Shown here: positions 3,001 through 9,000 of the stretch, piece after piece | How positions within the stretch are numbered: the first letter of the stretch is position 1 | Layout: every line of letters starts with the position of its first letter | DNA from: Chlamydiales bacterium | Lineage (GTDB): Bacteria; Chlamydiota; Chlamydiia; Chlamydiales; JACRBE01 | Length of the DNA stretch: 56,652 bases | Reading direction: 5' to 3' | NCBI GenBank assembly: GCA_016213235.1 | Contig: JACRBE010000047.1 | Span: forward strand, 1 to 56,652 | Program-made: the position numbers

Positions 3001-6000
3001 TTTTACAATACGTCAAGGTATGACACAGGGCGAATTCAAAACAGAGTGTTTAGCATTTGTTAAAGAGCTATTAGAAGAAAATAAGTCTCGAGGAGATCTC
3101 GGGAAACGTTTTACAATGAATCTCAGAAGAAATGGTGACGGTGAGATAGTTCAGCTTTATCTTTTCTTTACAAAGGAAATTACTTTGGGTGTGGCTCGCT
3201 CTGTTTTTCAAGACATTGAACAAGACATTTTAAGGACAGAAGGTTTTAAAATTTCATTTGTTAATACAGATAGACAGCACCGGATGCGCAGCGATCGGGC
3301 TTTTTATAAGGTTGTTTTACGGACTCATAGCATAACAATTTAAAACTTTTATACGTAATAGAGATCTACTTGTGTTAGCAAGTAGATCTCTTTCCTTTTT
3401 AAGGAAGCGCAGATGGATCATGTGCTTTATGTTTTGTATCTTTAATGCCAATTAAACAAATGAGAGCAAACACAAGGAATATCGGAATTAATAAAAAAGC
3501 CATCTTGTATGCATGAACGGAAAAAATTCTGGCTCCATTCAGCATTTGTCCTGTCCAGTAAGTGTCCAGGATTTTTCCGGCAAGCGGATCTGAAATGGCT
3601 CCAAAAAGAGCATCAAATGCATTCATAAAACCAATCGCTGTAGCTGCAATAACAGGAGCATGACGCTCTTGTATCATCGTAAAGCATAGCAGGAAGCTAC
3701 TGATGGAAAATCCAAATAAAAATAACATCATCGTAAGTAGAGGTTGGAAGAATACGGGAGCATAAATAACGATACTAATGGTGATTAAAGAAGATACAGT
3801 TCCCCAAAACATCACAAGCTTTCTTTTGCCTATCCAATCAGAAAACCATCCAAAGATAGGAGCTCCAACTGCAAAACCAATAAATATTAAAGAAACAGCC
3901 TGCGCTGCTAAATTGTGGGTAAGTGCATAAGCATCTTTAATATAAGATACACCCCAAAGGCCGCCAAATACCATTACAGGAGCAAAAGCGCATCCGCTAT
4001 AAAGAGAAAGAAGCCAGGATTGAGAATTGGTTAAAATCTTTTTTAAACTCTTGAGGATGGAAGCTTTTTCAGAAGAAAATTTCTTTTCTAGGCGCTTTTC
4101 AGGGGAAGCATCCCTTACAACCATTAAGAAGAGTAGCGCTAAGCCAAATCCCACAAGCGCGATTACTTCCATTACGCTTCGCCAAGAGGATAATTCAATC
4201 AATGCAGAAAGGGGCGCCTGGCCACCTACTGCGCCTAGCATCGCAAGAGTCATCATGAGTCCCGCCATAAGAGCAAATTGTCTTGGAGGGAACCAGGTAG
4301 AGGTGAGCTTTAAACAATTGATAGCAGCAAAAGCAGCTCCGGCTCCCGCAATAAAGCGACCTAAACAAGCAACGATTAAAGTGTCAGATCTTGCAAAAAT
4401 AAATGCACCAAGAGCACATACAGCAATAGAGAGTGTAGTTACTTTTCGAGGTCCAAATCGATCAATCAAAAGACCTGCCGGAATTTGCAGAATAAGGTAT
4501 GCATAAAAATAGGAAGCCGCAAGATTGCCAAGGTCAGTACCATTAATGTGAAAAGCATCCATTAAGGTAGAAGTCATGATACTTGGAGAAATTTCTATAG
4601 CATATTTGTAAAACATAAACCCGGCGCTCAGTAGCCATATGGTCCATGCATGAAAATAAAGTTTTACCTTTTTTGAACGAGTGGCACTCATAAAATCCCT
4701 ACAACAGTTATTGTTTTAAAGATAATAAAACAGCTCCTTGTATTATGAAAAGAGATTTTTCTTTACAAATTTTTTATTTGGTGCATAACGTGAAGTATGA
4801 GGATAGCATATGCGCACAGGAATAAAAGAATTAGACCGTCTTTATGCCGAGTTCCAGAAGGCAGCAAAAAAAATGGTTGGGTATCCGATTCATCAGGCCT
4901 TTGATTATTCCAAATTATTTCATTTTTTACAGTTTCATATTAATAACTTAGGCGATCCATTTCTTGATAGTTGGCATTATAAAATCAATACATTAAAAAT
5001 CGAAAAAGAAGTAATAGATCACGTAGCAAAACTATTCCATGCCCCAAAGGATAATTATTGGGGTTATGTTACAAATGGGGGAACAGAGGGCAATTTATAT
5101 GGTCTTTATGTAGCTCGTGAATTGCATCCGGAGGGTGTTGTGTTTTATTCCGATCAAACACACTATAGCGTGCCAAAAAATTTACGACTACTCAGAATGC
5201 GAGGAGTAAAAGTCAAATCACAACCAAATGGAGAGGTGGATTATCAAGCGTTGCAACATGCTATTATCCATGAAGAGAAAACTCCGATTATTTTAGCTAA
5301 TATTGGCACCACGATGCGAGGTGCTGTAGATGATGTTGCTAAAATCAAAGAGATTTTATCTGATTTGAATATAGAAAAATATTACATCCACTGCGATGCG
5401 GCATTCTTTGGTATGATTCTTCCTTTTATTTCAGAACTCGAGTCACAATTTTTTGATTTTAGACTTGGTATAGATAGTATGGCTATCAGCGGCCATAAAA
5501 TGATTGGCACGCCAATGCCTTGCGGTATAGTGCTGGTTAATAAAACGCATGTAGATCAAGTGGGGTCTTATATCGAATACACAGGATCTAAAGATAATAC
5601 TATTTCAGGATCCCGTAATGGATTAACACCTCTATTTTTATGGTATGAGTTAAATTATAATAAGCGTGGCAATCTGGTAGAAGTAACAAAAGATTGTCTT
5701 AAGAGAGCAGGTTATGCTCTAAAAAAATTTAATGATGCTGGCATTGAAGCTTGGCGAAATAAAAACTCTATCATTGTTGTTTTTCCAAGACCTAGCGATA
5801 AGATCATTAAAAAATGGCAACTTGCTGTAGAGGGGGACATTGCACATATGATTACGCTCCCTCATTTATCGTATAAGGTAATTGATCAAGTGGTAGCGCA
5901 AGTGGTGTCCGATTTAAAAACGAATTCTAATAAGAAACAGACAAGAAAAAAAAGACCTACACACTCCTCTTAAGTTAGGAAAAATAGGATGAGTTTTTCA

Positions 6001-9000
6001 AAAAAAGAACAGAGAAACGTTTTATTTGCAGTATCGATAGGTAATCTCTTAGAGTGGTATGAAATTTACCTCTATGTTTACTGGGCGCCTATTATTGGAA
6101 AACTCTTTTTTCAACAAGACAATTCAGATGGTGGTATTTCTAGCTTAACAAAAACGTTCCTGATTTTTGCAATGGGTTTTTTAGCACGACCTATCGGTGG
6201 CTTATTTTTTGGAAGACTAGGAGATTTAGTTGGTAGAAAAAAATCATTAATTCTATCTCTTATTATCATGGTAATACCAACATTTGTGACAGGGTTACTG
6301 CCAACTTATGAGCAAATCGGCAAGTATGCACCATTTATCTTAGTCGCCATGCGTATTTTACAATCCTTTCCCGCTGGTGGAGAATTGCCAGGGGCCTTTT
6401 GTTATTTATATGAGAGCTCTAAAGCAACAAATAGAAGATTTTTTTGTAGCTGGGGGGCTTTTGGTTATCAGATAGGAATTTTAATTAGCACGCTTGAATG
6501 TTTTCTCTTGGAAAGATTCTTATCTGTAGAAGATCTTATTCAATGGGGATGGAGATTTTCTTTTCTAGTCGGAGGTCTTATTGGGCTATGTGGTCTGTAT
6601 TTACGTTATAAGTTACATGAAACCCCTCTATATCGAGAAATGGAAACACATTTAAAAGTAGTAAGAGAACCAATATTAGGAGTGCTTTATAAATATAAAA
6701 GGCAAATCTTCATGGGTATTTTGTTTTGCGCACTAAACTCTTCTTCCTTTTACCTACTGTCTGTGAATTTCCCTGTCTTATTTGGGAAAGTGCTCGGAAC
6801 CCCCTATTCCAGTAATTTGATTGTTACTTCTCTGCTAATTATTTTAGTCACTGTACCCCTCCCACTTTTCGGTATGTTAGCAGATAGATATGACAATAAA
6901 AAAATACTCATCTCCTCTACGATTGCAATACTTGTTTTATTATATCCACTCTATCTTTCCATTACCTATTCTTCTGTAGTGTTCATGGGAATAATCATGC
7001 TTCTTTTTAGCTTGTTGTTTACCTGCCTCTCTGCTCTTATTCCCTTTATACTAGCTGATCTTTTTCCAACTTATGTCCGTTTTACTTGTGTTGGAGTGAG
7101 CTTTAATATGGTAGATGCAGTGATTGGAGGATTTACACCAGTTATTGCATTATACTTATTGAATATCACAGGAAAAGACGCTTCCTTTTGCTGGTTTTTA
7201 ATGATATGTGCCCTACTTTCCCTTTGTGGTTATCTCATGATGAAGAAAAAACATCCGATAGAAGATAAAACAAATACTTAAAAATTTTAATTGCTCAATT
7301 TTCTTAGCCCCGTTATACATTGATAATTACTTATAGCTATCTTTAGGAGCCATTATGAAATTATCATGGATTACCGGAATAAAGTTGACTGTTGTATGTT
7401 TACTGGGACAACTGGGCATCTCTTCCACTGCTAGTGCAGTGTTTTTTCCTTATCCACCACCAACATTTACGTACCTTTTAACGTCTGAAGATTATGATCA
7501 ATATTCTGTTGTATCGTATATCAATTTGATTGCTTTTGCAGAGATTTTACCACATGTTTATACGAATATTCCCGGTATCTTCACTTCTTCGCCGTTTAAT
7601 CCAAGTCTTCTTACCCCGGTAAATATCCCTTTTACTCAAGGTGAGATACAAAATTTTCAAGCCCAGATCAGCGCTGCTATTGATGCAATGTATCGTGTTG
7701 TTATGACAATTACGGTACCACCCGGAGCAAACAGAAACTTTGTGATTAATGCTCTTGCTGCTATTTCACAAAATATTGCTTTCAATAATTTTAATGGGGT
7801 AAGAACAGCTTTAACTGCATTATTAACTCAGATGAACTATTGGGCTGTAGAATTTAGCAATAACCAAGTGGGAGCTCCTCCTCTTGCTCCACCAAACCTC
7901 CTTGTTCCTCCAATCCGAAGTCAACCAACGCATTTACAAGCATATCTTTGGATATATTGCGTATATAGTATAGCGTATCAAATTATTCCCGGTGCTACAT
8001 TGTCACAGTTAATCAGCTGGTATAGTAGTACACAATTCCAAAAAGGGCTTCGACTTGCTATTGATAACATTATTCCTATGCAAATTTTTCCGGATAGTAC
8101 CGTGCACCTAGCATTCCAGAGTTATGACTTTGTAAATAATGCAATAGCTCGCGGCACTTTTACAGAGCGAACACTCAATCAGGTCATGCCTCCTTTGCGA
8201 CAGGCTTTTTGGCAACTTACGCCTAAATAACGATATGTGAAAAAAAATGAGAAAATAAAAACAAACAAACTTATAACAGGTATCATAGTTATGAAAAAAT
8301 TAGTATACGGAGCAATCTTTTCTCTTACTTGTGCAAGTCTTTCAGCTCTTCCTGTTGGCAACCCTTCCGAGTCGAGTCTTATGAAGGAAGGTGTATGTTG
8401 GCAAAAAGGGGACGATGGAGTGCGCCATCCTTGGCTAGATCACTTTAGTATCCGTGCAGGGTATTATGGAGATTTTGAGTTTAACAGACATACAAAAGTA
8501 TCCCAAGATGTTTCTCATCAGCATATGAATAGAACATCGATTTATACTAATGCTGGATACTTAGCTTTTAACTTTTATGACTGCGTAGATCTATTTACTA
8601 CGCTCGGAGTATCTAAAATCTATATGCAAGGTGATGCTGCTGTGTTTGGAAGCGGCGCTGCAGGTCAATGGCTGGATATGGAAACTAATTCAGACTTTTC
8701 TTGGAGCGTTGGAGCAAGGGCAACCCTTTTCCAATATGCAGGGATGTCGATTGGATTAGAGGGTCAATATTTTGCTACAAGTCCTGATCTGTCACGCATT
8801 ACACAAGCTGCAGCCTTTACTACTTATCATTCTTTTGATCTAAGTTATAGTGACTGGCAAGTGGGCCTTGGAGTGTCTTATAAGATCGATGCTGTTATTC
8901 CAACGATACCCTACCTTGCTATAAAATGGTCTCAAGTAAATATAGACATGGATAATTTTAATTTAGCTAAAGCACTTCCTAATACACTCTTTGATTTGAC

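Follow-up and report, generated by a model that had tools for sequence, protein, structure and literature searches.

A two-gene cassette of environmental chlamydiae pairs a PLP-dependent amino-acid decarboxylase with an MHS-like carrier

The AaxABC system of the Chlamydiaceae consists of a pyruvoyl-dependent decarboxylase (AaxB), an arginine:agmatine antiporter (AaxC) and a porin (AaxA) (PMC2720952). In the PLP-dependent family that includes plant SerDC and AlaDC, use of serine requires a tyrosine at the specificity site, such that the substitutions Y111A, Y111L and Y111V abolish it and Y111I leaves less than 5% (PMC11407765). Plant members of this family that share 57% identity with one another use either serine or aromatic amino acids, histidine is used by none of those tested, and the SerDC-like plant enzymes shift to aromatic or hydrophobic substrates (PMC4177580). 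Here we describe a decarboxylase of this family that is encoded beside a carrier gene in a Chlamydiales bacterium (assembly GCA_016213235.1); the window, the whole stretch of DNA analysed, is 56,652 nucleotides of contig JACRBE010000047.1.

The preliminary description placed three open reading frames at this locus, and all three are real and intact. The decarboxylase gene g00572 (4810-5973, forward strand; 387 aa) is followed by g00573 (5989-7281, forward strand; 430 aa), which codes for an MHS-like (ProP/TcuC-like) MFS protein, the dedicated partner of the decarboxylase; the 15 bases from stop to start (5974-5988, forward strand) are purine-rich ahead of the start codon. On the reverse strand g00571 (3399-4691; 430 aa) codes for an ACS/OPA-like MFS protein and is a neighbour outside the cassette. 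The divergent promoters of g00571 and the decarboxylase gene are presumably both located in the 118 bases between them (4692-4809), where a promoter consensus scan returned 11 sites against 14.3 expected, a number not above chance. A hairpin of 14 pairs (3360-3391) between g00571 and a convergent forward reading frame (2732-3343) is a probable terminator. One contig from the probable source sequencing run, which is not independent evidence, covers the span 2824-7045 with zero differences.

The decarboxylase is a PLP-dependent group II enzyme of the HDC/SerDC/AlaDC family (HDC, histidine decarboxylase), with the PLP lysine, its His, Asp and Ala partners, the catalytic-loop tyrosine and the fold all in place. 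Residues H118, D196, A198, H229, K230 and Y257, the counterparts of the PLP-binding and catalytic residues of SerDC and AlaDC (PMC11407765), are intact and 100% conserved among 98 sequences of its clade; since the catalytic tyrosine is retained, the product is more likely an amine than an aldehyde. A structure model, in which residues 26-30 and 43-48 are poorly defined, fits 7ERV, 8JG7 and 8JIJ alike (TM-score 0.84-0.86). The top PDB match by sequence is the HDC 7ERV (349 bits versus 311 for SerDC), a profile-based comparison gives the same order (444 versus 384 bits), and the protein passes the cut-off of the NCBIfam model PRK02769, 'histidine decarboxylase' (482 bits; cut-off 305).

The enzyme belongs to a clade of about 100 sequences, and in 23 of the 24 distinct clade copies with downstream DNA the gene directly downstream encodes the same MHS-family carrier. 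The suggestion that chlamydiae couple a decarboxylase to an MFS rather than an APC carrier is thus borne out as a conserved pair, and such tight linkage to a dedicated carrier is as expected of a proton-consuming amino acid/amine exchange. Stop and start codons touch or overlap in 12 of the 23 pairs, which suggests that the two genes may share one transcript. Seen from the carrier, nine of the ten copies with at least 58% identity in 401 genomes adjoin a decarboxylase gene; the tenth, in a 95% complete genome (G331) without the decarboxylase, lacks C247 and N250, two residues that are invariant in 46 linked copies. Probable same-contig carrier matches were found for 47 of 86 clade proteins versus none of 33 non-clade proteins. 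The mirror-tree correlation of the two proteins (r 0.48, 0/2000 permutations; 44 pairs, paired by probable shared contig) shows joint inheritance only.

The spread of the cassette is patchy: of the 401 Chlamydiales genomes sampled, 9 carry it, and there are signs of transfer between chlamydial families. Earlier counts of the Pyridoxal_deC family in Chlamydiales lumped unrelated enzymes together: two of the 15 matches of this type in 61 relatives (E<=1e-3) belong to the clade, and the other 13 comprise six glutamate decarboxylases, three long MfnA-like proteins, three cysteine desulfurases and one distant PRK02769 member. No third gene is conserved beside the pair across the clade loci examined. 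Three loci have a methyltransferase gene near it and one (L142) has an NRPS/PKS gene upstream, neither of them conserved.

The carrier finds its best model in TIGR00883 at 317 bits, below the cut-off of 443, and its helix motifs align with those of MHS proteins; searches found no close relative in the PDB and none that is characterised. MHS carriers are known as proton symporters rather than exchangers, which counts against an exchange by this one. The nearest non-chlamydial carriers adjoin peptidase or amino-acid dehydrogenase genes, as importers might. Four acidic residues (E22, E25, E132 and D376) lie in its helices, of which D376 was considered as a cassette-specific amine site and rejected, since it is present lineage-wide (136 of 141).

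We lean towards the view that the two genes form an accessory cassette that takes in an amino acid and releases an amine, the substrate being more likely neutral or hydrophobic. A host-derived amino acid would be imported by the MHS carrier, either in symport with protons or by exchange against the product, and bound as a Schiff base at K230, where CO2 would be removed. Y257 would then protonate the intermediate, consuming a cytoplasmic proton, and the amine could exit by way of that carrier or simply diffuse out. The cassette may serve to balance pH or protons, or else to deliver the amine to the host.

The preliminary description had identified the enzyme as a histidine decarboxylase; the family and the PRK02769 match stand, but the histidine substrate does not follow from them. 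That model is not diagnostic of HDC, because a rhizobial Tyr-type (serine-type) homolog (373 bits) and a chlamydial protein with 33% identity (327 bits) exceed its cut-off too, and the family label together with 47-49% identity leaves the substrate unfixed, given that the plant members differ in substrate at 57% (PMC4177580). At the HDC-diagnostic columns, which are ancestry markers rather than proven substrate contacts, the decarboxylase matches 2 of 16 (K66 and F76), and it has none of the HDC-type residues E27, C47, W50, F62, D256 and H336. The hallmark of serine decarboxylases, a tyrosine at the YPX specificity site, is also missing, and the residue there is I27. At this position the clade is variable but mostly hydrophobic, with Leu (24%), Ile (21%), Ala (16%) or Val (12%) commonest, versus Glu at 83% in an HDC reference set that is small (n=12) and includes members without proof of activity; the position is not decisive, since eight clade sequences have Glu and 2 of the 12 HDC-clade sequences have Val. 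We found no paper on histamine production for the Vibrio campbellii homolog with Ile at the specificity site, and the YPX residues of the plant aromatic enzymes were not found in the supplements searched. A neutral or hydrophobic substrate, aromatic or aliphatic and possibly more than one, is more likely than histidine.

The phylogeny bears on the same question. In a careful tree the HDC clade (support 100/99) excludes the decarboxylase, which falls in a separate clade of its own (96/100). However, the backbone is unresolved, and an AU test does not reject a sister-group relation between the chlamydial clade and HDC (p 0.83). A group of ACT-partnered decarboxylases was the sister clade in a first, quick-search tree (support 84), a placement that we dropped because the backbone is not settled by the careful tree. 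Given that open backbone and the HDC sister relation that the AU test does not reject, we make no claim about a donor lineage.

The pair could still be a histidine/histamine system if histidine were bound by different pocket residues and the MHS carrier replaced an APC antiporter. In its favour, HDC is the closest solved relative, the enzyme passes the PRK02769 cut-off, a sister relation to HDC is not rejected, a subclade with Glu27 exists, and the acidic residues of the carrier would suit a cation, although the lineage-wide presence of D376 weakens this last point and the only hisS gene is unlinked to the cassette in 5/5 genomes. With the enzyme outside the HDC clade and nearly all HDC-diagnostic residues missing, histidine is not established as the substrate, and we regard this reading as doubtful.

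A biosynthetic role is unlikely. Here the carrier would only import, and the amine (such as ethanolamine made from serine) would be retained to build lipids, envelope or natural products. SerDC belongs to the same family, P50 and W336/Q337 are common to the clade and SerDC-type proteins, and both the importer-like surroundings of the nearest non-chlamydial carriers and the single upstream NRPS/PKS gene are consistent with such a use. Against this, the residues most often seen at position 27 do not include Tyr, and the pair has no conserved third gene. The ethanolamine route is unsupported, as phosphatidylserine decarboxylase is present in 5/5 genomes and choline-kinase-family matches are weak and unlinked (4/5 genomes).

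The upstream gene g00571 is an unlinked, vertically kept transporter and not part of the cassette. It is missing from every one of the other 23 clade loci, of which 16 have at least 1.5 kb of upstream sequence; all four other cassette genomes have its orthologs (59-79%) either on a different contig or at a distance of about 127 kb, and three genomes without the decarboxylase have orthologs at 52-61%. The three-gene set of the preliminary description, with g00571 and g00573 jointly moving histidine in and histamine out, is thus very improbable, even though here g00571 stands divergently beside the decarboxylase gene and has as nearest plasmid-collection matches Legionella and Piscirickettsia MFS proteins, which presumably resemble Pht amino-acid importers.

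The cassette adds a third decarboxylase module in Chlamydiales to AaxABC and the glutamate decarboxylases. It is a small accessory module in uncultured chlamydiae and directly testable. Literature searches, including word searches of PMC9816063, PMC8242063 and PMC9723776, found no description of the cassette or of a decarboxylase clade with its own carrier type, although gene tables in unsearched supplements may list the enzyme. The case also shows that databases assign the label 'histidine decarboxylase', and with it histamine production, too freely. If exported, the amine could act on the host or aid survival at low pH. It is conceivable, though improbable, that environmental chlamydiae pass between their families a dedicated module whose product is a signalling amine (histamine, or else phenethylamine, tyramine, tryptamine or another trace amine), delivered into the host cell by an MHS carrier that has become an amino acid/amine exchanger. 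Its sub-clades, of which some genomes have two, would then be specialised for different amino acids.

The cassette shares features with several known systems and differs from each. The Gram-negative PLP-dependent HDCs (Photobacterium, 7ERU/7ERV) have the same fold and length, about 46% identity and the same PLP and catalytic residues, but form a separate clade with the six HDC-type residues that the chlamydial enzyme is missing. The Klebsiella aerogenes cluster (L211) has the order APC carrier-hdc-hisS and the siderophore-cluster HDCs (L212 and L213) lie among siderophore genes, whereas the chlamydial partner is an MHS carrier and no APC, hisS or siderophore gene adjoins the pair at the clade loci. 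AaxABC likewise has a decarboxylase adjoining its carrier in a chlamydial genome (PMC2720952), but none of AaxA, AaxB and AaxC is homologous to the pair, in which the enzyme is of the PLP type and the carrier an MHS-family MFS protein. The pyruvoyl decarboxylase domain PF01862 was not found in this genome or the other cassette genomes, and the AaxB family occurs in 32 of 400 genomes, from three other families and including no cassette genome (G095 was not scored); replacement of AaxABC by the cassette was considered and set aside, as the two do not co-occur yet most genomes carry neither. The plant SerDC, AlaDC and SerDC-like aromatic decarboxylases and aldehyde synthases (8JG7, 8JIJ; PMC11407765, PMC4177580) are of the same family (37-38% identity, TM-score 0.84-0.85) and share the Gly-Asp-Pro and Trp-Gln-Leu-Ala motifs and the catalytic tyrosine, but the chlamydial enzyme is carrier-paired, matches 3 of 22 Ser-type diagnostic columns and has neither Tyr nor Phe at the specificity site. 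Nearest outside the clade, at about 50% identity, are the ACT-partnered decarboxylases of other bacteria, which are also without the HDC residues but have a 131-aa tandem ACT protein in place of a carrier and mostly Cys or Ser at position 27.

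The three open reading frames lie where the preliminary description placed them, and all are intact. The decarboxylase gene, g00572 (4810-5973, forward strand; 387 residues), is followed by g00573 (5989-7281, forward strand), which encodes a 430-residue carrier of the MHS family of MFS transporters. Among 401 genomes of the order, 19 have a match to the decarboxylase at E≤1e-30, and 10 of those genomes, across five families, hold a member of the close clade (at least 55% identity). Pooling genome copies with metagenome loci, and dropping the duplicates L137, L141 and L145 and the 5' fragment L123, which has no downstream DNA, gave 24 distinct clade copies. 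The same MHS carrier (58-68% identity) is the next gene in 23 of these, locus L117 being the exception, and the decarboxylase stop and carrier start touch or overlap in 12 of the 23 pairs. From the carrier side, the enzyme adjoins nine of the ten matches at 58% identity or above in the 401 genomes. In the protein database, equal contig size for enzyme and carrier served as a stand-in for linkage; among the 120 carrier matches listed, one of equal contig size exists for at least 47 of the 86 clade enzymes, counting the query, or at least 47 of the 74 whose contigs reach 2.6 kb, and for 0 of 33 non-clade enzymes. Linked carriers have C247 and N250 in 46 of 46 cases and S251 in 44 of 46, residues seldom present in 21 unlinked carrier paralogs. 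No third gene beside the pair is conserved across the loci, and the unit is two genes, decarboxylase and carrier.

The tenth carrier (G331:C1:108835-110085; L229, L262; 58% identity) is an orphan in a genome from which the enzyme is absent, and in its seven-member sub-clade Cys replaces N250. Locus L135 (5911-11086) has two diverged cassettes tail to tail on one contig, with different pocket motifs, and the clade proteins P0043 and P0060, on equally sized contigs (17763), suggest a second two-copy genome. In L142 (1-5154), PKS/NRPS genes lie immediately upstream of the cassette on a chlamydia-like contig.

The divergent MFS gene upstream, g00571 (3399-4691, reverse strand), previously counted as a third member, lies outside the cassette. 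It occurs in none of 23 other loci, 16 of which have at least 1.5 kb of upstream DNA; its orthologs are sited elsewhere in four of four other cassette genomes and are also present in three genomes without a detected decarboxylase. The earlier family counts take in other enzymes: the 13 further matches among 61 relatives comprise six glutamate decarboxylases, three long MfnA-like proteins, three cysteine desulfurases and one distant family member.

Our histidine decarboxylase (HDC) references were K. aerogenes hdc (with an APC carrier and hisS), those of the pJM1 and Acinetobacter siderophore clusters, which we take to be AngH and BasG, and relatives. In a careful tree of 56 rows picked from 401, whose bootstrap had not fully settled, they form one clade (100/99) and the chlamydial group another (96/100) over a poorly resolved backbone; in an AU test on a quick tree, a sister relation of the two was not rejected (p 0.83). 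By sequence, g00572 is a PLP-dependent member of the HDC/serine decarboxylase (SerDC) family outside the HDC clade. It scores 482 bits against NCBIfam PRK02769 (cut-off 305). Among proteins of solved structure it comes closest to Photobacterium HDC (349 bits), followed by Arabidopsis SerDC (311) and tea alanine decarboxylase (AlaDC; 300); its predicted structure (mean pLDDT 79, less reliable over residues 26-30 and 43-48) matches each of the three about equally well (TM-score 0.84-0.86). The catalytic set, the loop Tyr among it, is without variation across 98 clade sequences; SerDC and AlaDC depend on this Tyr, according to the available text of PMC11407765.

The family label does not settle the substrate, because plant members differ in substrate and because the PRK02769 cut-off also admits a rhizobial protein of the Tyr type and a protein of 33% identity. 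In the available text of PMC4177580, plant members 57% identical use serine and aromatic amino acids, respectively, and others Phe, Met, Leu and Trp; with histidine, AtSDC and SlAAAD have no activity and the two other enzymes form no amine. Sixteen columns served as HDC-diagnostic, being fixed to 80% or more in 12 sequences of the HDC clade and to no more than 15% in the ACT and Ser-type comparison sets; they are marks of ancestry rather than proven contacts. The query matches 2 of them and lacks E27, C47, W50, F62, D256 and H336, all present in 7ERV. Of 22 Ser-type columns it shares 3, a comparison in which positions 27-29 are circular because that set was picked by its motif. At position 27, the site governing specificity in SerDC and AlaDC, the clade has Leu (24%), Ile (21%), Ala (16%) and Val (12%), and Ala, Leu or Val there abolished AtSerDC serine activity (PMC11407765, available text). 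Against this, eight clade members have Glu at position 27, and two HDC-clade members have Val.

A neutral or hydrophobic amino acid, or a mixture, ranks first as the putative substrate of g00572; histidine would be a minority possibility, and the probability of serine is low. Histamine production by a chlamydia, as proposed in the preliminary description, is unsupported, though possible. The Glu27 sub-clade (P0058, P0060, P0062, P0064, P0068, P0070, P0074 and P0078), which resembles HDC at this site, is paired (four via equal contig size) with a distinct carrier sub-clade of 14 sequences (support 1.0), and is the best candidate for histidine use. At L217 (4977-10306), a rhizobial 'histidine decarboxylase' with the serine-type Tyr motif lies beside a desaturase, a sulfhydrylase and a glutamine amidotransferase, a set resembling rhizobitoxine/AVG clusters, where ethanolamine would fit.

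The cassette is patchy, being found in one of three genomes of genus g10 and two of three examined of g126. Decarboxylase and carrier are each 62% identical to same-genus copies, several neighbouring orthologs being 66-87% identical, and 60-68% identical to copies in family f8, whose genomes have a median best-hit identity of 35-47% (8-10 genes each, paralogs counted in). Because identity is low to same-genus copies and high to f8 relative to neighbours and medians, and because the flanks vary between genomes, within a genus too, the pair appears to have moved between families. The host is chlamydial, to judge by close homologs that carry Chlamydiae names and by a Chlam_OMP gene at 8237-9142, and the DNA is also present in a groundwater sequencing run. 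The GC of the pair (0.36, 0.35) agrees with the genome (0.36). Distant same-family decarboxylases (29-48% identity) occur in further chlamydial families (L124-L131, from G081, G280, G298, G392, G113, G188, G136 and G107, and L003), with no carrier directly downstream; L126 bears the serine-type Tyr motif. Ten kilobases from the cassette is an IS607-like element (17103-19140), in which a TnpB-like (Cas12f1-like TNB) gene comes after a resolvase/MerR gene.

The window also contains an efflux-type operon judged from translations (9427-15787; membrane-fusion protein, ABC ATPase, two permeases and outer-membrane protein), genes for an amino-acid kinase, an aldehyde dehydrogenase and P5C reductase (20168-22994), probably proBAC for proline synthesis in a chlamydia, and a gene for a Suv3-like RNA helicase (34471-36549).

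We propose that the two genes would be transcribed as one mRNA, that the carrier would import a host amino acid, that its PLP-dependent decarboxylation would consume a proton, and that the amine would leave by exchange or diffusion. The substrate is probably host-derived, because chlamydiae can no longer make histidine, methionine, branched-chain amino acids or phenylalanine themselves (PMC9816063, available text). The carrier helices hold acidic residues, D376 being common to 136 of 141 chlamydial relatives, and in four of five loci read the nearest non-chlamydial relatives (33-35% identity) have peptidases or amino-acid dehydrogenases alongside. In five of five genomes hisS is present in one copy, unlinked to the cassette, and phosphatidylserine decarboxylase is found.

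The decarboxylase-MHS cassette is real and conserved, and apparently undescribed: our search of literature listings and of the text and part of the supplements of chlamydial genomics papers found no description of it. The cassette would work like amino acid/amine decarboxylase modules, among them the proposed counterpart AaxABC (PMC2720952), but has no homologous part in common with AaxABC; of the 400 genomes scored, 32 have the AaxB family, and none of these carries the cassette. The nearest homologs outside the group (L148-L210, about 50% identity) differ in being followed by a 131-residue tandem ACT gene instead of the carrier, in an ACT cluster of 36 members.
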